The notes under the pieces were generated by a model, which saw only the letters and a program-made list of their open reading frames with translations, searched no databases and was not told the origin of the DNA. 15,337 bases of DNA, from IMG/VR virus record IMGVR_UViG_2648501149_000017; one strand, written 5' to 3'. Below, in pieces: positions 2,800 through 14,358 of this stretch (positions are counted from its first letter, which is position 1; every line of letters starts with the position of its first letter). Both the position numbers and the translations under genes were made by a program. This stretch comes from a virus (taxonomy: Duplodnaviria > Heunggongvirae > Uroviricota > Caudoviricetes).

Positions 2800-3620
2800 A
2801 TATTTTAAAAATTAATAATACTGATTCTCTGCTCAGAGATTACTACCAGTTGGATGAAGCTTCAGAAAAAATTGGTTGTAGTGAAAAGGATATACTCTGG
2901 TTTGCCAGAGAACGAGATGTAGAGCTATGCATGGAATTCCATGATGATGAGTATGATGTTTCATGTGGTTTGAAGATTGATGGTCAAATGGATGAGTTCT
3001 TATCTAATCTGAAATATTTACCACGAGATAGAAATGGCAATATTATGTTGTCAGACTTAAGTTCTATAAGAATCCCTGATGAAGATAATTTAATTGATAA
3101 AAATGGTTTTATTCGATGTTTCATATCCGGTTTATGGGCTGTTGATTATGAATATAAAGATCTGTTAGTTAAGCATGAGGGGCAACCGGATTCTTGGCCT
3201 ATTCATTTTCTACTGGCGGGTACGCCTAATATAAATTGTAAGGTAATTCTTTATGTAAATTATGATGAAAAAGAAAATTATTATCTTTTTGAGGTTTTGT
3301 GGATTACAAAGGTACAGATTCAAAAATTCATTGATATAGTCTTATGCGAACAAAAGCGGATAAAAAACGCCAATAAATATAAATCACAATCTGAGGCGCA
3401 AAAACAAAAACATGCTGTTCCTCGAGCTGAAATACTCATGGCTATTATTTCGCTCTATCATCGTGATATGAGGCTAAGAAGAGAGAGTCCAGCAGCGATA
3501 GCTGATTATCTTTTTCAACATGCCAGTGAGTTCTGGCCTAAGACCGGAGAACCGCCTTTGAGCTATGATACTGTTGTTAGTTTGCTACGTAGTTGCATGA
3601 AAAACATTAAGTTTAACTAA
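2796..3620 (+). CDS. hypothetical protein (AT-rich, unknown function)
   Basis: 274-aa ORF whose ATG overlaps the integrase stop (ATGA), suggesting translational coupling; base composition is visibly more AT-rich than neighbouring core genes. No family recognised. Confidence 0.6.
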   Translation: MNILKINNTDSLLRDYYQLDEASEKIGCSEKDILWFARERDVELCMEFHDDEYDVSCGLKIDGQMDEFLSNLKYLPRDRNGNIMLSDLSSIRIPDEDNLIDKNGFIRCFISGLWAVDYEYKDLLVKHEGQPDSWPIHFLLAGTPNINCKVILYVNYDEKENYYLFEVLWITKVQIQKFIDIVLCEQKRIKNANKYKSQSEAQKQKHAVPRAEILMAIISLYHRDMRLRRESPAAIADYLFQHASEFWPKTGEPPLSYDTVVSLLRSCMKNIKFN

Positions 3621-3745
3621 ATATTAACAATTATTGTGGCTAATGATTTTGGATTTTTTTCATTAGTCACATTTTTCTCATTTATAACCTATGTTTTAAT
3701 TTTCCGTGTTGAAGCCAATAGACTTAGATAAACGGAGAATGATGA

Positions 3746-4036
3746 ATGTTATCTAAACATGATAATACTACTTTGCAACGACCTTCAATGGATTCTCTGA
3801 TCGATATGAAGTTTATTACTTCCGATTGTTTATTAAGTGATAAATGGATTTATCGATTGATTTCTCTGAATCGCTTTCCAAAACCTATAAAAATAGGTCG
3901 GATGTCACGATGGCGCGCTGCTGATTATTATAAGTGGCGAGATGGGTTTGAAGAAAACTCAGGTCAACATTTTGAGGGAATGAGAAATAAGGCAAGAGCA
4001 ATTAATAAAGGGAATAGATTATCACCTACTCCCTAA
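3746..4036 (+). CDS. alpA: AlpA-family (prophage CP4-57 regulatory protein-like) HTH transcriptional regulator / excision regulator
   Basis: Motif LLSDKWIYRLISLNRFPKPIKIGRMSRWRAADYYKW resembles the AlpA HTH signature (RFPKP.K.G ... W); RBS ACGGAG upstream. An internal ATG at 3788 is an alternative start. Confidence 0.78.
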   Translation: MLSKHDNTTLQRPSMDSLIDMKFITSDCLLSDKWIYRLISLNRFPKPIKIGRMSRWRAADYYKWRDGFEENSGQHFEGMRNKARAINKGNRLSPTP

Positions 4037-4373: not shown

Positions 4374-4550
4374 ATGGCTAAACAGAAGTGTACCTGGTTA
4401 TTTGCGGCGATCAACCGCAGTCAACGCAATGCCTGTCCTGTGATGTTAAGGATCACCGCAGATAACGAGCGGTCAGCGCGGCGCAGACTTGCCCCGGACT
4501 ATGTACTGAGCTTTGCCGGGCGCATTCCCTGCGGAGGTGAACATGCGTAA
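4374..4550 (+). CDS. Icd-like host cell division inhibitor (58 aa); not in the ORF track
   Basis: Translation MAKQKCTWLFAAINRSQRNACPVMLRITADNERSARRRLAPDYVLSFAGRIPCGGEHA; the W.FAA ... RR.LAP ... LSFA.R.P pattern matches my recollection of P4 Kil/Icd-like proteins. RBS AGAGG upstream; stop overlaps the next ORF start. Confidence 0.65.
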   Translation: MAKQKCTWLFAAINRSQRNACPVMLRITADNERSARRRLAPDYVLSFAGRIPCGGEHA

Positions 4551-4933: not shown

Positions 4934-5218
4934 ATGAATATTTCAAACGGGCACAACGGTGCTCAGGGCCACACTTTGCCTGAAAAACACAATACCGGTG
5001 CTTTTGCCTATGGGTTGTCAGAGGACAGTTTCGGAAAGCTGACCCGCGCAAGAAATGCCTGCGACATGCTCCAGCTTCTCTTTTCTGAATACCCGTCTCA
5101 GGCCGGAGCACTGGACGCTGGCTGTGCGCATGGTGTCGCCGCGCTGATGGAGTACCTGCTGGCAGATTTGACGGATATTGCACACAGTTGCGCACTGATT
5201 GAAGGAGGTGCCAGATGA
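4934..5218 (+). CDS. hypothetical protein
   Basis: 94-aa ORF with GGAG RBS; stop overlaps the next start (ATGA). No recognisable motif. Confidence 0.55.
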   Translation: MNISNGHNGAQGHTLPEKHNTGAFAYGLSEDSFGKLTRARNACDMLQLLFSEYPSQAGALDAGCAHGVAALMEYLLADLTDIAHSCALIEGGAR

Positions 5219-5598
5219 ACCAGCCGCAGGTTTCCATTTTCCCGGCAGAAATGACCACCGCGCTTTACCGGCGGGCTATTGCTTCAGCATGGCGGCAGAA
5301 AATGCTGAACGAAACTGGCAGTGATCAGTATGGTCCGCACAGCCTGACGGTGGAGCGTATTGAAATGGCCATTGCGCTGCATATCGAGTGCGTACTGATT
5401 AACGAGTACGGCGAAGTGCAGGGCGCCGCTACCGCGCTGGCACTGCTGACTGACATGCTGGAGCCGTCACTGCTGACCGCGCCGCCGGTACTGACCGCGC
5501 GCGGCTGTGAAGTGATGGCGGAGATGTACCGCACGCTTCCGGCGGCCTTTGATGACTTCTGCAGTACCGGTGTGACGTTGTATGAGGGGGAAGTATGA
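5215..5598 (+). CDS. hypothetical protein
   Basis: 127-aa ORF with AGGAGG RBS; translationally coupled on both sides (ATGA overlaps). Confidence 0.6.
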   Translation: MNQPQVSIFPAEMTTALYRRAIASAWRQKMLNETGSDQYGPHSLTVERIEMAIALHIECVLINEYGEVQGAATALALLTDMLEPSLLTAPPVLTARGCEVMAEMYRTLPAAFDDFCSTGVTLYEGEV

Positions 5599-8267
5599 CA
5601 ATACGGACGGTTACGCAGATTTCAGCCGCCGCACGGGGGAAATGGCCTGTTATTCTGCAGATGCTGCGTATTGATGTACCTGAAAACGGCAGGCACGGTC
5701 CCTGCCCGAAATGTGGGGGCAAGGATCGTTTTCGCCTTGATGACCTTGACGGGCGCGGGACGTGGATCTGCAGCCAGTGTGGCAATGGTGACGGTCTGGA
5801 TCTGGTTAAGCTCGTAACCGGTTACAGCGTCAGAAAGGCTGCGCAGGAGGTGGCGCAGGTGCTTAATGTGCCGGATGTGCAGGAACTGCCTGTTAAGCCT
5901 GCCAGACAAAAAGCCCCTAAACGAGACATGGGTCTTACCGTGGCGGCGCTGATGAAAGAGAGCCACACGGGAGAAAGTGCCTATCTGACAGGAAAAGGGT
6001 TCGCCGGATACCCGGCCTCTCTGACCGGAAGCGTGCAGCATATCAGCGGTAAGGATTTTCCTGCCGGTTCCCTGCTGTTACCACTCACGACCAACACCGG
6101 AGCCGTGACCGGTGCACAGCTTATCGCCCCGACGGGTGAAAAAAGCATACTGCCCGGCAGCACGATGAAAGGCGCGTTTGTGTCGCTCAGCCCGTTACCG
6201 TCTGAACCACCGGTACAGGTGGTGATTACCGAAGGTTACGCTACGGCGCTGACGGTAAGCCAGCTCACTGCCGGATGCGTAGTGGCTGCCATATCTGCGG
6301 GCAACCTGCCCAATGTGGCGCAGTCGCTGCGGGCACGCTGGCCTGAGGTAAAAATTATCATCGCCGGTGATAACGATTTTCAGGACGGGGGGGAGAATCC
6401 CGGCAGAGCCTTTGCTGAACGGGCGGCAAAAGCTGTTGGCGGCTGGATGACGCTGCCACCAGGAGAGATTAAGGCTGACTGGAATGACTTTCATCGGGAG
6501 CACGGTATTACCCGTGCCCGTGAAGCCTTTCGCAACGGTCTGGTACTGTGCGGGGAAGGCCGCACGCAACTGCCGCACGGGTTCCGTCTTACCCAGGAAT
6601 ATCTCTGGTATGAAAAGCAGGTACAGCGCAACGGTGAGACGGAGATCCAGAACGTCAAAATATGCAGCCCGCTGCGCGTGACGGCAATTACCTGCGATGC
6701 CGATGGCGGTAACTTCGGACGACTGCTGGAATGGGAAGATACGTGGGGTGAGTGTCGCCGCTGGGCGATGCCAATGGAAATGCTGAGCGGCAGTGGTGAG
6801 GAACTGCGCCGGGTACTGCTGGTTAACGGGCTGTCTTATATCAGCACCACCGGTGAGGCACGCGCACGCCTGATGGAATATATCTCACTGTGTAAACCGG
6901 AACGCCGCGTGACCTGCGTCAGTCGTACTGGCTGGCATGGTCAGGTTTACGTCCTGCAGGATGAGGTCAGCGGTGAAGGTGCAGAGGGTGTCATTCTCCA
7001 GACCACTTCCGTGCAGGGGCGTGATTTCCGCGTGTCGGGCACAACAGAGGAATGGCGGGAGCATGTATCCCGCTACTGTACCGGCAACTCCCGCGTGGCA
7101 TTTGCTGTCAGCCTGGCCTTTGCTGCACCACTGTTACGGCTGGTTGGTATGGACGGCGGCGGCTACCACCTCAAAGGGGAATCGACAGACGGTAAGACCA
7201 CCACCATGAAAGCGGCAACCTCCGTCTGCGGCGGGCCTGACTACTGGCAGACATGGCGGGCCACCGGCAACGCGCTGGAGGGATGCGCCAGCCGCCGTAA
7301 CGATGCCGCCATGATGCTTGATGAGATCCGGGAAGTTGACGGACGCGAGGCAGGCAATATCGCCTACATGCTGGCAAACGGTCAGGGCAAGGGCCGTGCC
7401 GGTACGGACGGTGAGCTGCGTACCCGTAAGCAGTGGCGCCTGTTGTTCTTTTCAACTGGCGAGTTGTCTCTGACCGAACATGCGGCAAAGGCCGGTGAGC
7501 GTACTTTTGCCGGGATGGAAGTCAGGATGATCCAGATCCCCAGCGATTCCGGGAAGTTTGGCGTTTTTGAGGAGCTGCACGGCTTCGACAGCGGCAAGGC
7601 TCTGGCAGAGCATCTTGAATGGGCCACGTCCTGCTACTACGGTTCGCCGTTCCGGGAGTGGCTGAAAGCACTGACCGCTGATCTTAACGGACTAACGGCA
7701 CAGGCAAAATCGCTGATGAAGGAATATGCTGCCGCCCTGACTCCGAAAGATGCAGGCAATCAGGTGGGCCGGGCTGTGAACCGCTTTGCACTGGTGGCGA
7801 TGGCAGGTGAACTGGCAACCCGTCTGGGTATCACCGGCTGGCCTGAGGGTGAAGCACTGCGGGCAACCCGCGTCTGCCTGAACGCATGGCTGAAAGATCG
7901 CGGGCACACCGCCAATCAGGAAGATATCGCCGCACTGGAGCAGGTTCGCAGTTTCTTTACCGCGAATCAGTACAGCCGCTTTGCAGACTGGTATGACGAG
8001 CGCAACCGCCCCGGCAATATGGTGGGCTGGCGCAGGGTGGAGAAAGGCAGTACCGCGCAGGGCACGGAAGCTGTCACTACGTTCTATGTCATGCCGTCCG
8101 GCTGGAAAGAAATCTGCAGGGGATTTGACCCGCGCAAGGTGGCGCGTCTGTGCGCAGATCGTGGATACCTGCTGCCCTCCACTGATGGCAAACTCCAGAC
8201 AACCATTCGCCCGCCAGAGATGAATCCCCGCAGGCTCTATGTCTTCAACAGCGAGGTGCCGGGTTAA
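5595..8267 (+). CDS. P4 alpha-type bifunctional DNA primase / P-loop NTPase (helicase-like)
   Basis: N-terminal zinc ribbon (CPKCGG ... CSQCG), TOPRIM motifs (ITEGYATAL ... IAGDND), then a P-loop domain with Walker A-like GESTDGKTT and Walker B-like MMLDE. Confidence 0.92.
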   Translation: MTIRTVTQISAAARGKWPVILQMLRIDVPENGRHGPCPKCGGKDRFRLDDLDGRGTWICSQCGNGDGLDLVKLVTGYSVRKAAQEVAQVLNVPDVQELPVKPARQKAPKRDMGLTVAALMKESHTGESAYLTGKGFAGYPASLTGSVQHISGKDFPAGSLLLPLTTNTGAVTGAQLIAPTGEKSILPGSTMKGAFVSLSPLPSEPPVQVVITEGYATALTVSQLTAGCVVAAISAGNLPNVAQSLRARWPEVKIIIAGDNDFQDGGENPGRAFAERAAKAVGGWMTLPPGEIKADWNDFHREHGITRAREAFRNGLVLCGEGRTQLPHGFRLTQEYLWYEKQVQRNGETEIQNVKICSPLRVTAITCDADGGNFGRLLEWEDTWGECRRWAMPMEMLSGSGEELRRVLLVNGLSYISTTGEARARLMEYISLCKPERRVTCVSRTGWHGQVYVLQDEVSGEGAEGVILQTTSVQGRDFRVSGTTEEWREHVSRYCTGNSRVAFAVSLAFAAPLLRLVGMDGGGYHLKGESTDGKTTTMKAATSVCGGPDYWQTWRATGNALEGCASRRNDAAMMLDEIREVDGREAGNIAYMLANGQGKGRAGTDGELRTRKQWRLLFFSTGELSLTEHAAKAGERTFAGMEVRMIQIPSDSGKFGVFEELHGFDSGKALAEHLEWATSCYYGSPFREWLKALTADLNGLTAQAKSLMKEYAAALTPKDAGNQVGRAVNRFALVAMAGELATRLGITGWPEGEALRATRVCLNAWLKDRGHTANQEDIAALEQVRSFFTANQYSRFADWYDERNRPGNMVGWRRVEKGSTAQGTEAVTTFYVMPSGWKEICRGFDPRKVARLCADRGYLLPSTDGKLQTTIRPPEMNPRRLYVFNSEVPG

Positions 8268-8293
8268 GGCTTTGCGTGAGTCTTATTTATTAA

Positions 8294-8488
8294 GGGTAAC
8301 AGGTGAAACAGGTGGAACAACCGTATTTTACAGGGCTGAATCTGTTCCACCTTCTGAAATAGTGAGGTGGAACAGATGTAACGCCAGCCAATCCGCTGTT
8401 CCACCTTGTTACCCGCGATGTTCCACCGGTGCAGTGTATATAAATGCTTTATAAAACAAATGGGTAACACATGTTTCACCTGTTACAC
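8294..8488. repeat. Iteron cluster (putative replication origin, P4 ori/crr-like)
   Basis: At least seven copies in both orientations of TGTTCCACC / TGTTTCACC (8302-8310, 8311-8319, 8343-8351, 8366-8374, 8397-8405, 8419-8427, 8472-8480) plus GGGTAACA / TGTTACCC variants (8294-8301, 8407-8414, 8462-8469, 8481-8488), immediately downstream of the primase gene. Confidence 0.7.
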
Positions 8489-8576
8489 CGCATCAGGGAC
8501 ATAAAGCAGACTGAAACAGAGGGCATTTTTATCTGGCTGGCTTTCATAGCCACGTCTGAATAACCGCAAGCGCCCG

Positions 8577-8641
8577 TTGTACCAGCCACCACACACTGAG
8601 CACCGATAGTGTGCTTGTGTCAGCCACGACACAATTGACGT
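8577..8641 (+). promoter_or_regulatory. Psid-like late promoter with two TGT-N12-ACA dyads (Ogr/Delta activator sites)
   Basis: TGT-N12-ACA at 8577-8594 and 8615-8632, centres 38 bp apart, upstream of the sid-like ATG at 8668. Matches the P2/P4 late-promoter architecture as I recall it (sites near -55 and -18), which would put the transcription start near 8641. Confidence 0.5.
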
Positions 8642-8667
8642 AACGAACCAACCCGACAGGAGAAGTC

Positions 8668-9411
8668 ATGAACAACACCGCAGTGAATAACAACCTTTCC
8701 ACTTTTCCGGCTGTAACGCAGCGGGCACTGGAAACCATGAACACAGCCAGAAACGCATGGCTTGAAGCACGTCGTCAGCAGAAAGCGGCAGCGGATAATA
8801 TTGCGACAATCCGCCAGCGTCGCGCTGAAATGGAAGCCACGACGAACACACTGAATGAGGAGTGGCGCACGCTGTTTCGTGAAAGTCAGGGCGTGGTCTC
8901 AAAGGAAATGAAAAAACTGCGCACGGAAATTGCGCTGGGACGAGAAACTCTTGAGGATTTTGATGAGCTGCTGGAGGCTCAGGAAAGCGAAAATGCACTT
9001 TTGCCGCAGAAAGCTGCGGAATTAGCCGGAAAGTATATCCACGCGCATAACATCCTTGTGGATATTCGCGCAAAACAAATCTGGGAAGATTTTATGCAGT
9101 CGCATGGAAAAGCGCTTATTCAGACGCTGAGCCTGCTTAAATCCACAATGGGCCGGGAAGCCAGTGCCGTTGTGGGTGTGGTGAATTCAGTTAATGACCC
9201 GGACACAGTGCTGAAAGACTTTATTCATAAACATATCACCAGACCGGCTCTGGCTAACGATGCGATGCCTGAGCAGGACCCGGTGTTTAAACTGGCGGGA
9301 GTTGCCCCGGATTATGCGGCGCGTCTGGATTTCAGTAATCAACTCTCTCCGGCAGCTATGCATAAAATTAAGGTTCGTCAGGAACTTGCTGAGAAGGAGA
9401 AAGCAGTATGA
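8668..9411 (+). CDS. Sid-like capsid size determination (external scaffold) protein
   Basis: 247 aa, similar in length to P4 Sid; the segment EEWRTLFRESQGVVSKEMKKLRTEI matches my recollection of a conserved Sid region; sits directly upstream of psu-like and delta-like genes. AGGAGA RBS. Confidence 0.65.
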   Translation: MNNTAVNNNLSTFPAVTQRALETMNTARNAWLEARRQQKAAADNIATIRQRRAEMEATTNTLNEEWRTLFRESQGVVSKEMKKLRTEIALGRETLEDFDELLEAQESENALLPQKAAELAGKYIHAHNILVDIRAKQIWEDFMQSHGKALIQTLSLLKSTMGREASAVVGVVNSVNDPDTVLKDFIHKHITRPALANDAMPEQDPVFKLAGVAPDYAARLDFSNQLSPAAMHKIKVRQELAEKEKAV

Positions 9412-9964: not shown

Positions 9965-10237
9965 ATGGCACTTAAATGTCCGGAATGCGGTACAGTTGCA
10001 CACGCCAGAACAGCAGCCTATGAAGCTCCGTCAGTTAAACGCTCGTGGTATCAGTGCCAGAATCTGGAATGTTCCTGCACATTTACGGCACTGGAGAGTG
10101 TGGATAAGATAATCATGAAACCCCGGCGCAATGAACAGCTATCAGACAAAGCACAATCCCCGGAAAAACAACAGCAAACGCTCAATCGCTATGGCTCCGC
10201 GTCAAAACTGTCAAGCCGTCAGCAGATTCCTGTCTGA
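9965..10237 (+). CDS. Ogr/Delta-family zinc-finger late transcription activator
   Basis: MALKCPECGTVAHARTAAY ... WYQCQNLECSCTF matches the Ogr signature (C.C.HART ... Y.C.N..C). The listed ORF starts at a GTG at 9956; the ATG at 9965 with AGGAG RBS is the more likely start. Confidence 0.85.
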   Translation: MALKCPECGTVAHARTAAYEAPSVKRSWYQCQNLECSCTFTALESVDKIIMKPRRNEQLSDKAQSPEKQQQTLNRYGSASKLSSRQQIPV

Positions 10238-10257
10238 TTAGAAAAAAACGCCCACGT

Positions 10258-10285
10258 AATCCCGGTCGAGTACCGGGATTTTTAA
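10258..10285 (+). terminator. Rho-independent terminator downstream of the delta-like gene
   Basis: Perfect 9-bp stem AATCCCGGT / ACCGGGATT with 5-nt loop followed by a T-run. Confidence 0.6.
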
Positions 10286-10312
10286 CACCTTTTCCCTGGC
10301 TGGCCTGAGAGC

Positions 10313-10420
10313 GCATGAGTGCATGTCTATGGCGCATGAAAATGCATGAGCCTTATGCACCTTTTTTGAGGCGAAAACCTTTGTGTGGTGGTATCTGAGA
10401 CGATTTATGGCATGCATGAA
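10313..10420. repeat. Cluster of GCATGA(A/G) motifs
   Basis: GCATGA at 10313-10318, 10334-10339, 10343-10348 and 10415-10420, with GCATG variants at 10321-10325 and 10411-10415, in the non-coding stretch between the late genes and the cargo cassette. Confidence 0.4.
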
Positions 10421-10766
10421 AACCAGTCTGTTAAGCGAAGCGGGCAGGCGTGCGGGGCTGCCCGCGATAGCACTGAAATCAACAGGTAAAACTATTTTTT
10501 ATTAGTAGTGTAAACTGGGAGCGAACGGACTCTGTCATGCTGTATCATCCTGTAATGATCAATCTCACTGGTGTCTGTATAGATGTCAACCAGTTTCGAC
10601 GGCTGTGTCTAACTTAAAATTAGAGCTTAATCAAGTTTTTCCTCGAGAATACTTTTAAAAGACAATGAGTTATGAGAAAGTGGAGGCTGTCACGTTGGTC
10701 ATATGTAACACTCCACGTAATCTTAATCGCTTTGTAAATGTTGAAGTTAATTAATAGGGAAAACTG

Positions 10767-11726
10767 ATGCTAACCAGGGCTGAAAATATAAGAAAAATCA
10801 CAAGCTATTTAGCTATTCTCTCAAGAGAGGTTGAGATTAGTGCCTCCCTCAATCTTTTGGATATCAACGTTCAAGCGGAATCTTTTTATAGAGATTTCTT
10901 AAACTTATGTTATGGATATAATTTAAGAAATACCAATAGTGAAGAGCAAAACTACCAAGCAATAGATCTTGCTGATGAAGATCGGAAGATTGCTATACAA
11001 GTAACTTCAACTTCTGACTTGGGAAAAATTAAGAATACAGTTGATGGATTTATAAAAAGTAAGCAATATGAAAAATATGATAGACTAATTGTACTGAATA
11101 TAACTGAAAAGAAAAAGCACAGATTGAAAGAGTATGGAATAGCCGGGTGCTATGTAATTAATATCAAAGATGATGTATGGGATTATAAGGATATAATTAG
11201 AAAGATAAACGATTTGAATGATTGTGATATATCAACAATATGCTCATTTTTGGAACGTAATATTAATACTAAAGCTGCTGATAAACCGCCGAAAGAAGTC
11301 ACAACTATGTTTGCGATGATTGAATTATTGAGTGATGATGCTCACCCATTGGCAGGAAATGGATTTATTGAAGAGCCTAATCCTGAAAATAAAATATATA
11401 AAAGATTTTCAGATTATTCAGAGCGGTTGATTGGCTTATATACTGGGTTAGCTCCATTATATAGTGGGATATTTAAGTCAATAAAAGAACAGAGCGATAT
11501 TGGTATCGTAAGGTACCAAAAGATGAGTTTGTATTTAGAGTCATTTAGTGATAAGGTCTTAAGAAGCCATGGTGGAGATCCTATCTTGGCGCTTAATTAT
11601 TTAAAAGAATATTTTTCTAAACAACTGAGCCAGAGAAATGTAGATTACGATGAAACAGCTATCAAATTTTTCTTAATTGAGAATTTAATTGCATGTAACG
11701 TCTTTCCTAATTCGGAGATTCTTTGA
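10767..11726 (+). CDS. cargo protein with SMEK-like N-terminal domain (putative effector of a three-component ABC-ATPase system)
   Basis: 319 aa, AT-rich; the N-terminal segment LNLLDINVQAESFYRDFLNLCYGYNLRNTN ... QAIDLADEDRKIAIQVTSTS resembles what I recall as the SMEK domain found in conflict systems. AGGGA RBS. Assignment is from memory, not a search. Confidence 0.55.
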   Translation: MLTRAENIRKITSYLAILSREVEISASLNLLDINVQAESFYRDFLNLCYGYNLRNTNSEEQNYQAIDLADEDRKIAIQVTSTSDLGKIKNTVDGFIKSKQYEKYDRLIVLNITEKKKHRLKEYGIAGCYVINIKDDVWDYKDIIRKINDLNDCDISTICSFLERNINTKAADKPPKEVTTMFAMIELLSDDAHPLAGNGFIEEPNPENKIYKRFSDYSERLIGLYTGLAPLYSGIFKSIKEQSDIGIVRYQKMSLYLESFSDKVLRSHGGDPILALNYLKEYFSKQLSQRNVDYDETAIKFFLIENLIACNVFPNSEIL

Positions 11727-11974
11727 TGTTAAGTTTTTTTTCGAAAGATGAGGATTTGACAAAATCCCCTCCTGTTGTAGGGGCTAAAATTCTTAATTTA
11801 TTTGACGAAACAAAAAAAGAAAAAATTAGTATTTTCGATTTAGCAAAAGAATTAAAGAAAAACAACTCTCTAGGAGTGCGTGCAATTTATTTTGGAATGG
11901 TCTTTCTTTATACTCTTGATCTTATCGATTTCGATGAGCCATATGTGATAAATAAAAATGTTAAGAATAAATAA
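11726..11974 (+). CDS. small middle-component protein (about 82 aa) of the three-gene cassette
   Basis: ATG at 11726 overlaps the upstream stop (TGATG); the listed ORF begins at a TTG at 11723. Its 3' end overlaps the ATPase gene by 17 nt. Size and position between effector and ATPase fit an ABC-three-component middle component or a Lamassu LmuC-like protein. Confidence 0.55.
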   Translation: MLSFFSKDEDLTKSPPVVGAKILNLFDETKKEKISIFDLAKELKKNNSLGVRAIYFGMVFLYTLDLIDFDEPYVINKNVKNK

Positions 11975-13673
11975 ACTATATAGCATACCAGAATCTTTTG
12001 AGCCAGTAAGCTTTGATAGTGGCATCAATATCATCTTAGGTGAAAAAGATGTTTCATCTAACAAAACTAATGGAGTGGGTAAAACTCTTTTAATAGAGTT
12101 TATTAATTTTTGTTTATTAAAAGAATTTAAGTCGAGTAGAGTTTCTAAAATTCCTCATTCTGATTTTTCGAAAGACATTTTGATATGCCTTGATTTTAAT
12201 ATTGATAATATTAACATTATATCCCAGCGTTCTATTGGGAAACATAATGAGCCAACACTTGTAATAAATGGAAAAACAATAGAGTTTAGTGGATTAGATG
12301 ATGCGTTATCTCATTTAAGCAATCTTATCTTTAAGAATAGTAAGGGTATACTTCATCCATCATTTAGAGCGATGCTGGGGCCTCTGATACGCGATGAACG
12401 ATCTGAATTTAAATCTATTGTTGAGTGCTTCGACACAAAATTACATATACCTGCTGACTATACTCCTCATCTTTATTTGTTAGGTATTGATATTGCTCCC
12501 TATAAAGAGGCAAAGATTTTACAACGAGAAATAGATGATTTATCAACTACAAAAAATAAAATAAAGAGAGATATTGAATTTCTGACGGGAAAAAAAATTA
12601 GTTCTGCAAAGGCAGAGGTTAATGATCTTAAATCAAAAGTTGAACATATCAGAAACGCTATGGATGCATTTGATAGCGATAGCAGTTATGAACTTATCAA
12701 AGATGAAGTAGAAGAATTAGAAAGTTCTTTAGAAGAGTTGCGGAATAAAAGAACAATACTTAAGTTAGAGCTTTCAAGAATAAATGCTCTCGTTGGTGAA
12801 GTATACATAAATGATGATGAAGTGGTTGAAATTTATAATAAATTTAAAGTTGGATTAGGTGATGCTATCAAAAAAGAACTTAATGATGTTATTTCATTTA
12901 AGAAAAAAATAGATCACTTCCAAAACACTTTGTTAAATACGCGAAAAGAAACATTACTTTCTGAATTGCGTAAGATATCAGATAAGCTATATACAGTAAA
13001 TAGACTTTATAAAGAAAAAGCTAGTGTTTTTGAGCAGGCGGGGGGGTTTAAAAGCCTGAAAATTTTAATAATGACTTATCAGAAAAAGTTAGAGGAGTAT
13101 TCACAGTTATCTTCATTGCTTAAAAAATTTGAAGATTTCGATTCTAAATGGAAAGTTAAGAAGTCAGAACGCTCTTCTATGATAATTTCGTTAGATCTTT
13201 CTATTATGGATAACGAAAAAACGATTGAATCTTTTGAGGAAACCATTTTATCAATCCATGAATATGTTTTTGGAAATAGAAAGTGTTCTTTCGAAATTAA
13301 GGCGACAGAGAAGAAAGAAACTATCTCAATGGATTTAAGAATTGATGATGACGGTAGTCATAGTAATGAGCGAGAAAAGGTTTTCTTTTATGATTTGGCT
13401 CTTTTACTTACAGAAGAAACGTTTCGACGTCACCCTGGATTATTAATTCATGATAATATTTTTGATGTGGATCAAGATACATTAATTAAAAGCTTGAATT
13501 ATTTGGCAGAGAAATCCAGTTGCTTAAATGATGCACAATATATTTTGACGTTAAATAGCGACAAAATTAGTGAAATTGATAAAAGAGATTTGAAACTAGA
13601 TATTAACTTCTATAAGCGAGCTTCGTTAACTAAAATAAATAGATTCCTGGGAAGGCATTATCAAGAAATATAA
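11958..13673 (+). CDS. ABC/SMC-like ATPase (Lamassu LmuB-like / ABC-three-component ATPase)
   Basis: 571 aa; N-terminal head with P-loop (INIILGEKDVSSNKTNGVGKTLLIEF), long charged probable coiled-coil middle (many E/K heptad-like stretches), C-terminal Walker B / D-loop-like LLIHDNIFDVDQD. Confidence 0.65.
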   Translation: MLRINKLYSIPESFEPVSFDSGINIILGEKDVSSNKTNGVGKTLLIEFINFCLLKEFKSSRVSKIPHSDFSKDILICLDFNIDNINIISQRSIGKHNEPTLVINGKTIEFSGLDDALSHLSNLIFKNSKGILHPSFRAMLGPLIRDERSEFKSIVECFDTKLHIPADYTPHLYLLGIDIAPYKEAKILQREIDDLSTTKNKIKRDIEFLTGKKISSAKAEVNDLKSKVEHIRNAMDAFDSDSSYELIKDEVEELESSLEELRNKRTILKLELSRINALVGEVYINDDEVVEIYNKFKVGLGDAIKKELNDVISFKKKIDHFQNTLLNTRKETLLSELRKISDKLYTVNRLYKEKASVFEQAGGFKSLKILIMTYQKKLEEYSQLSSLLKKFEDFDSKWKVKKSERSSMIISLDLSIMDNEKTIESFEETILSIHEYVFGNRKCSFEIKATEKKETISMDLRIDDDGSHSNEREKVFFYDLALLLTEETFRRHPGLLIHDNIFDVDQDTLIKSLNYLAEKSSCLNDAQYILTLNSDKISEIDKRDLKLDINFYKRASLTKINRFLGRHYQEI

Positions 13674-13847: not shown

Positions 13848-13866
13848 CTCCTATTATCGGCACCAT
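13848..13866 (+). repeat. attR core: second copy of the 19-bp repeat CTCCTATTATCGGCACCAT
   Basis: Exact repeat of the tRNA 3' end (1427-1445); only the tRNA 3' terminus is duplicated, not a full tRNA. Confidence 0.8.
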
Positions 13867-14019
13867 TCTAACGTCTCCCCAAGTCTACTCAAGTATTTAA
13901 AAACCTCTTATAATCAGTATATTAATGCCCCTTTTAGTCTTTTGACGTCTATTTAAGTACCCCAAACTCTACAAGCAATTGAGGGGATTTGCTGTTCAGT
14001 TTAGTGGAGATACCCCCAA

Positions 14020-14358
14020 GTGAAACTCAATGCCCGTCAAATAGACACTGCCAAGCCAAAAGAGAAGGCTTACAAGTTGGCTGATGGTGGTGGTCTGTAC
14101 CTCCTGGTAAAACCTGGTGGAGGAGAATATTGGCGTCTCAAGTATCGTGTAGCTGGTAAAGAGAAGCTGTTAGCACTAGGTGTGTATCCTGAGGTCACCT
14201 TAGCTGATGCTCCTGCAAAACTTGAAGAAGCTAAAAGAGGTATCTCTGGGGGAATCGATCTGATGGAAGTGAAGCGAGAGGAAAAGATTGCCCGGGAAAC
14301 GCAGTTAAACAACACCTTCAAAGATATTGCCCTTGAGTGGCACAGTAACAAATTATAA
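14020..14358 (+). pseudogene. Truncated P4-type integrase (N-terminal 112 aa only)
   Basis: Translation KLNARQIDTAKPKEKAYKLADGGGLYLLVKPGGGEYWRLKYRVAGKEKLLALGVYPEVTLADA aligns with the N-terminus of the intact integrase at 1609, then stops long before the catalytic domain; preceded by an upstream region resembling that of the intact int (CCCAAGTC, TTTAAAAAC). Confidence 0.8.

Follow-up and report, generated by a model that had tools for sequence, protein, structure and literature searches.

The island and its primase-helicase gene

The window analysed here (the whole stretch of DNA, 15,337 bp) is E. coli chromosome, in which proA and tRNA-Thr(CGU) are followed by an island. A 19-bp direct repeat, CTCCTATTATCGGCACCAT (the 3' end of tRNA-Thr), at 1427-1445 and 13848-13866 bounds an element of 12.4 kb. 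On its + strand the island carries, in this order, a P4-type integrase, an AlpA-like regulator (a weak match, E 4e-4), an Icd-like protein, a DUF5375 protein and the primase-helicase, followed by a Sid homologue (24% identity, E 2e-12; start at 8668), Psu, an Ogr/Delta zinc-finger protein and candidate defence genes. Judged by this gene content, from the P4-type integrase through Psu and Ogr/Delta, the island is a P4-like satellite integrated at tRNA-Thr. Of the components in the published description of P4-like satellites (PMC8628076), the element has Int, Sid, Psu and Ogr/Delta, with a weak AlpA; neither alpha (as PF03288) nor epsilon was detected in it. In the census of such satellites alpha was identified by PF03288, the Pox_D5 profile (PMC8628076), so that the window element would score there as a variant 'lacking alpha and epsilon'.

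Several further observations concern the satellite as a whole. After delta, at 10238-13673, a 530-bp gap is followed by three genes, the first encoding a SMEK-domain protein that matches the PADLOC model of an Argonaute-associated domain, the others an 83-aa ORF and a DUF2326 protein that matches the PADLOC candidate PDC-M68B; this region is probably the defence hotspot of the satellite. Just past the right repeat, at 14013-14102 (-), a 90-bp segment is 78% identical to the beginning (5' end) of P4 int, which suggests the remnant of a second, decayed tandem element. An otherwise 100% identical copy in E. coli VG12A2 carries an IS1A (3059-3756) in a 274-aa gene downstream of int; the gene is intact in the window copy (~2980). 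Neither a search for the 19-nt cohesive end that tolerated 4 mismatches nor blastn with the ends of P4 found a P2/P4-type cos in the window, and Rfam detected only the tRNA there and no P4 CI/C4-type immunity RNA; helper phage and immunity mechanism may differ from those of P4.

The primase-helicase (890 aa) consists of a zinc ribbon and Toprim primase (aa 1-316), a DUF927 AAA+ helicase (aa 330-612) and a C-terminal domain (aa ~620-890). Its Pfam matches are Zn_Ribbon_Prim, Toprim_3 and DUF927 (the last with E 2e-90); D5_N, DUF5906 and Pox_D5, all three of which are found in P4 alpha and in the Pri-Rep of EcCICFT073, gave no Pfam match. Likeness to P4 alpha is confined to aa 5-316 (BLASTP, 321 aligned positions, 38% identity). 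With a profile of the C-terminal half, hhalign gave no match to P4 alpha (probability 0.1), and P4 alpha domains were absent from the top matches of both fold searches made with this half. A profile of 16 homologues matches two initiator-helicases, the SaPIbov1 Rep (8tch_A; E 4.9e-17, aa 410-648) and the SCCmec helicase Cch (5dgk; E 9.6e-16). The predicted C-terminal fold matches the same two proteins, and the last ~90 residues, as predicted, match the oriT-binding winged-helix protein TcpK; the structure prediction reached a pTM of 0.50 overall, with high confidence for aa ~690-890 only. For the last 64 residues a winged helix is predicted.

Directly upstream of the primase gene, the DUF5375 protein (5215-5598) is 40% identical to P4 ORF106, which we take to be Cnr. 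P4 Cnr modulates the DNA binding of alpha. The Cnr homologue has been retained although that half of alpha by way of which P4 Cnr probably works has given way here to an unrelated domain.

The repeat cluster downstream of the gene

A gap of 400 bp separates the stop codon of the primase gene (8267) from the start of sid (8668); a cluster of short repeats takes up its first half, and two dyads lie in its second. RefSeq annotates no gene in the cluster region. The features are, by position and strand:

5595..8267, +: primase-helicase gene, 890 aa, proposed initiator (Pfam hits, BLASTP, profile matches)
8073..8264, +: codons of aa 827-890, predicted winged-helix-like module (predicted strand 827-832, helices 834-841 and 846-856, hairpin 869-871/879-884), proposed reader of the repeats
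8277..8285, +: GAGTCTTAT, conserved motif at the left edge of the putative origin (alignment of 11 origins)
8294..8301, -: site 1, GGGTAACA (TGTTACCC on the - strand), degenerate; in register with full repeats of other lineages
8302..8310, -: site 2, TGTTTCACC (word scan, alignment)
8311..8319, -: site 3, TGTTCCACC; invariant in 8 class-A relatives
8343..8351, +: site 4, TGTTCCACC; half of a 13-bp inverted repeat (repeat I3) with site 5
8366..8374, -: site 5, TGTTCCACC; pairs with site 4
8375..8383, -: site 6, GATGTAACG, degenerate; GGTGGAACG in most class-A relatives
8397..8405, +: site 7, TGTTCCACC (word scan, alignment)
8407..8414, +: site 8, TGTTACCC, degenerate (alignment)
8419..8427, +: site 9, TGTTCCACC; final site left of the A+T-rich stretch
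8437..8461, no strand: A+T-rich stretch TATATAAATGCTTTATAAAACAAAT, 22 of 25 positions A/T, proposed DNA-unwinding element
8462..8469, -: site 10, GGGTAACA, degenerate; opposed to site 9 across the A+T-rich stretch
8472..8480, +: site 11, TGTTTCACC; TGTTCCACC in two relatives (L004, L040)
8481..8489, +: site 12, TGTTACACC; TGTTCCACC in all 7 other class-A relatives
8578-8595 and 8616-8633, +: two TGT-N12-ACA dyads (repeat D3), outside the putative origin

The word TGTTYCACC has 7 exact matches in the 15,337-bp window, all of them within 8302-8480: at 8302 (-), 8311 (-), 8343 (+), 8366 (-), 8397 (+), 8419 (+) and 8472 (+). By chance a mean of 0.23 would be expected; the maximum was 2, and 7 or more were reached in none of 200 dinucleotide-preserving shuffles. 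The earlier note, which had reported at least seven copies in both orientations within about 200 bp, is borne out by these counts, and its bounds of 8294-8488 are correct to within one base. When one mismatch is allowed, the sole extra copy within the element is TGTTACACC at 8481; the other such copy stands at window position 3, in proA and outside the element. The note had also seen GGGTAACA variants interleaved with the repeats. Exact copies of the 8-mer stand at 8294, 8407 (-) and 8462, and a variant of it stands at 8481; searched for as a bare word with one mismatch, it shows no window-wide enrichment (10 copies, 8.8 expected), and its significance derives from aligned relatives that hold in-register repeat sites at the same positions. 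The variants are degenerate sites in register, at which sister lineages carry the full word.

In total, the cluster holds 12 sites, 7 exact and 5 degenerate copies, in both orientations, with 9 to the left and 3 to the right of the A+T-rich stretch (25 bp, 88% A+T; 20-bp windows reach up to 0.85 A+T). The two outer ends of the cluster form a 19-bp inverted repeat, while the inverted repeat made by sites 4 and 5 is a perfect one. The functional unit probably starts at the conserved GAGTCTTAT (8277) and ends at 8489. The only match to the DnaA box TTWTNCACA in the window is at 10099, with none near the cluster; iteron plasmid origins that depend on DnaA, in contrast, have DnaA boxes next to their repeats. 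Scans of 8150-8750 for sigma-70 promoters and terminators found nothing.

The earlier note had described P4 ori and crr as built from octamers, and the P4 record indeed annotates TGTTCACC as 'type 1 repeats' in both. The motif scan that it had proposed came out negative: TGTTCACC is absent from the cluster and has a single copy in the window, at 4536, as chance predicts. A full-text literature search for TGTTCACC returned unrelated primer sequences only.

Class-A relatives keep the dyads to the right of the cluster, which stand 38 bp apart, the first 90 bp and the second 52 bp before the sid homologue. In P4, TGTGTCAGGGCTGGCACA occupies the equivalent place upstream of sid, and the window dyads resemble the P4 Psid region. 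On the model of the P2/P4 late promoters, the dyads at 8578-8633 are probably the Ogr/Delta-activated late promoter of the sid-psu-delta operon.

Repeat words and C-terminal modules among relatives

Homologues of the primase-helicase with 57-100% identity are abundant in Enterobacterales, where they extend over many genera; of 5,426 complete E. coli genomes, 329 contain the close form. A protein-based scan of one genome per species gave 55 loci. In the intact homologues examined among them, the gene is followed by a repeat cluster: within 450-600 bp past the stop codon, a lineage-dependent word is found in 4-12 copies in almost every locus, and about 45 relatives across Enterobacterales share the same site array, in register. 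The relatives use at least 8 repeat words, with GGTGGAACA (as in the window), GGTGTAACA, GGGGTAACA and CTGGTAACA / GTGGTAACA in some lineages and GTGGATACA, GYGGTTACA and TGTAGTACA in others; the word of class-D origins reads TGTTACCAG. In the scanned relatives, the 600 bp that follow the gene contain no exact P4 octamer, except for one copy in L039.

We aligned 11 origins belonging to six word classes and found 12-13 sites in register, with a common orientation pattern and an A+T-rich block at the place equivalent to that in the window. At the left edge, TCTTAT is identical in 11 of 11 aligned origins, while GAG is found in 8 and GTA in the other three. Site 12 of the window, TGTTACACC, is the repeat word of the sister 'class B' lineages; like the GGGTAACA variants, it stands in register and has the word of a sister class. 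The five TGTTCCACC sites are invariant in eight close class-A relatives, and variable columns make up 3 of 63 in the seven exact repeats compared to 37 of 134 outside them (Fisher p = 1e-4). At the weaker sites of class-A relatives, base 5 toggles among C, T and A. Word changes often concern one base, e.g. TGTTACACC to TGTTCCACC or TGTTACCCC, rewritten across about 12 sites.

Four loci had initially been scored as free of repeats. One of them (L054) is a frameshifted pseudogene; the other three (L039, L047 and L056, from Klebsiella spallanzanii, Scandinavium and Apirhabdus) have arrays shifted by ~1.1 kb downstream, behind an inserted gene of 335 aa that overlaps the primase stop codon (6149-7156 in L039). 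Their word is GTGGGAACA, in 10-13 copies. The shifted array still opens with GAGTATTAT followed by three tandem sites, and the GAGTNTTAT edge moves along with it; in L039 the left-edge motif is kept as GAGTATTAT (7310-7320), although the inserted gene parts the primase gene from the origin.

A more distant case is a circular E. coli element of 12,152 bp (L061, NZ_CP148430), whose TOPRIM-DUF927 protein is 32% identical to that of the window. Directly after its gene (6540-6652) there are inverted repeats, three copies of GTTGGTTCA before and three of TGAACCAAC behind an A+T-rich stretch. This 'plasmid' is an excised satellite-like element with the genes int, Icd-like, PerC and TOPRIM-DUF927; a second cluster of the same word, GAACCAA, lies ~1.8 kb away (~8400) and is reminiscent of P4 ori and crr. 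Another 'plasmid', OX345456, with a homologue of 74% identity, was considered as evidence for autonomy and rejected, being a linear contig of a fragmented assembly.

The C-terminal module was compared with the word in close pairs, defined by a core (aa 321-826) that differs by no more than 6%. Pairs that share the word diverge equally in the two parts (core 1.7%, last 64 aa 1.8%), whereas pairs with different words diverge more in the last 64 aa (8.4%) than in the core (2.9%). Four independent contrasts were available: Escherichia/Pantoea, class A against class B; Xenorhabdus, where L023 (class B) and the four class-D loci L024/26/29/31 are separated by 5 differences, with 0 among the four; Proteus L025 and L028, with 2 core and 4 terminal differences; and Pectobacterium/Brenneria (L019, L020, L030). 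Positions 846, 850, 866, 867, 870, 878 and 887 recur, which corresponds to the start of the second helix and the hairpin. The residue at position 866 goes with the word in all of 46 loci: Lys866 accompanies words of the GG[T/G]G type (20/20) and Arg866 the others (26/26). Only the close pairs are informative in this respect, as segment-by-segment identity to the window protein revealed no block that follows the repeat class. In the Proteus pair, the closest of the contrasts, the whole origin is 22% diverged, with the same A-to-C change at nearly every site. Repeats are not enriched in mismatches relative to spacers there (26/112 versus 23/105, p = 0.87); the expectation of conserved spacers with changed repeats was dropped for this pair, as mismatches are equally frequent in both.

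Across the loci compared, the word thus changes together with the winged-helix-like C-terminal module of the primase-helicase. Since the codons of this module adjoin the origin, their joint divergence could partly reflect linkage or recombination of one patch instead of co-adaptation. It is a tentative idea, one to which we give rather less than even credence, that the family, if the recurrent residues do set specificity, constitutes a readable protein-DNA recognition code, with at least 8 specificities, and an incompatibility system against cross-talk between co-resident P4-like satellites.

A putative origin of the SaPI/PICI type

The SaPI replicons of Staphylococcus aureus are among the closest known counterparts. 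The Reps of SaPIs are self-loading initiator-helicases whose C-terminal winged helix binds repeats of 5-6 nt, and SaPI origins consist of 6-12 repeats immediately downstream of rep around an A+T-rich centre (PMC9371898). The window helicase is homologous to the SaPIbov1 Rep (8TCH), which has the SaPI1 and SaPI5 Reps beside it in this group, and to the related Cch (5DGK); its gene is immediately upstream of the array, and the putative origin likewise comprises short repeats (12) and an A+T-rich centre with opposed sites, 9(+)/10(-). The differences are that SaPIs belong to the Gram-positive S. aureus, whereas the window has a Gram-negative host and the context of a P4-like satellite; that the window protein has a fused zinc-ribbon-Toprim primase of the P4/T7 type; that the repeats are 9 bp long in the window but 5-6 bp in SaPIs, with unequal arms (9 + 3) in the window; and that the C-terminal domains are only 10-14% identical.

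Gram-negative PICIs share the SaPI layout: in EcCICFT073, pri-rep-ori drives plasmid replication, and the origin, just downstream of pri-rep, has two sets of repeats flanking an A+T-rich region (PMC6092414). Like the window element, EcCICFT073 is a satellite found in E. coli and carries int together with an AlpA-type regulator and an Icd-like gene; it is, however, a PICI with lambda-type cos and not a Sid/Psu/Delta satellite. Its Pri-Rep is of the P4-alpha type (D5_N, DUF5906 and Pox_D5, no DUF927) and has no similarity to the window protein, and its origin repeats (L059, CFT073 12005-12240), which we read as TGTCTACC, differ in their word from those of the window.

P4 itself is a satellite of the same type, with a P4-type integrase at a tRNA gene and with Cnr, Sid, Psu and Delta homologous to those of the window element, and it also has short repeats in both orientations around an A+T-rich stretch, in words that look alike (GGTGAACA in P4, GGTGGAACA in the window). 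The window cluster takes the position of the two P4 cis sites at once, that of crr right behind alpha and that of ori right in front of sid. Nevertheless, the gene order differs, sid following the primase gene directly in the window; P4 has two cis regions, 4.5 kb apart and both required, where the window has one cluster; type-2 repeats are present in P4 but not in the window cluster; and alpha combines a D5_N/DUF5906 helicase with a Pox_D5 origin-binding domain, in place of which the window protein has DUF927 and an unrelated C-terminal domain. The window origin thus departs from the P4 ori/crr system in initiator domain, repeat word and two-site layout. In one respect the earlier note, which had suggested that the longer core may reflect altered specificity, has to be amended: the 9-mer is not the P4 octamer under a modified DNA-binding domain of alpha, as only aa 1-316 are alpha-like and the helicase and C-terminal half match SaPIbov1 Rep and Cch. 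The P4 word TGTTCACC, the EcCICFT073 word TGTCTACC and the window family's TGTTCCACC have a common TGT..ACC frame, while the DNA-binding domains differ. This frame could be due to chance; in a bolder version, alpha could have exchanged its helicase and DNA-binding half for a SaPI-type one and retained the cis site.

Taken together, we consider it likely, with good confidence, that 8277-8489 is the vegetative replication origin of the 12.4-kb P4-like satellite, of the SaPI/PICI type and bound through the C-terminal domain of the upstream primase-helicase. The comparative evidence and the predicted fold thereby lend support to the central proposal of the earlier note, a putative iteron origin recognized by the C-terminal domain of the adjacent primase. 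The first site (8294) closely follows the stop codon of the initiator gene (8267). By homology to the SaPI Reps, the C-terminal domain of the DUF927 helicase would bind the repeats, oligomers on both arms would melt the A+T-rich centre, and the helicase would load itself without DnaA, DnaB or DnaC; the fused Toprim domain would then lay primers, and the host polymerase would copy the excised circle. As in P4, copy number may be under the control of the Cnr homologue encoded upstream. The unequal arms (9 + 3 sites) count against this reading. In an incomplete literature search we found no paper describing the origin of this subfamily.

Three other explanations have to be weighed, all of them weaker than that of an origin. 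The repeats might be bound by another protein of the element, Cnr-like (DUF5375) or AlpA-like, which would recruit the primase-helicase indirectly. Here the position of the Cnr homologue, directly upstream of the primase gene, would fit, and the correlation of winged helix and word could stem from linkage alone. Yet in L019 and L030 the Cnr-like proteins differ at only 2 of 136 positions, although the two loci have different words and primases with 8 differences in the last 64 aa; Xenorhabdus loci keep the repeats without a comparable upstream ORF; and the homologous SaPI Reps bind their repeats directly (PMC9371898). We regard another binder as quite unlikely. The absence of any second cluster of the word in the 12.4-kb element, even with one mismatch allowed, bears on a different possibility, that of a crr-like accessory site that enhances replication from a true start elsewhere in the element. 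In P4 the cluster immediately downstream of alpha is in fact crr and not ori, but the window cluster also occupies the position of P4 ori upstream of sid and has its own A+T-rich centre, which makes an accessory site the least probable of the three.

Finally, the array might serve mainly in transcriptional control and not in initiation, as an operator or as an insulator that separates the early operon, whose last gene is that of the primase, from the late promoter of sid-psu-delta. Plasmid iterons often autoregulate too, the primase gene has no predicted terminator behind it, and the array lies ~90 bp upstream of dyads typical of Ogr/Delta-activated promoters. On the other hand, no sigma-70-like promoter overlaps the array, which together with its GAGTNTTAT edge moves as a unit in L039, L047 and L056; an A+T-rich centre and opposed repeats with a Rep-type helicase gene upstream are the layout of a SaPI/PICI origin; and the element contains no other candidate origin. 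A mainly transcriptional role is thus very unlikely, its standing being just below that of another binder.

The putative origin reveals no new mechanism: its kind is already known, and what sets it apart is a helicase and DNA-binding half that is SaPI-like rather than P4-like. We consider it moderately notable for its clean series of specificity switches, and these natural variants lend themselves to studies of origin recognition and incompatibility. The defined cis element of 210 bp with its 64-residue candidate reader is also a candidate minimal replicon for delivery vectors based on satellites. A large proportion of Enterobacterales genomes contains P4-like satellites, which bring hotspots of anti-phage defence with them; elements like that of the window, counted as 'lacking alpha', would have a complete replication module after all, made up of a P4-type primase, a predicted self-loading helicase of the SaPI/Cch type and a putative iteron origin.
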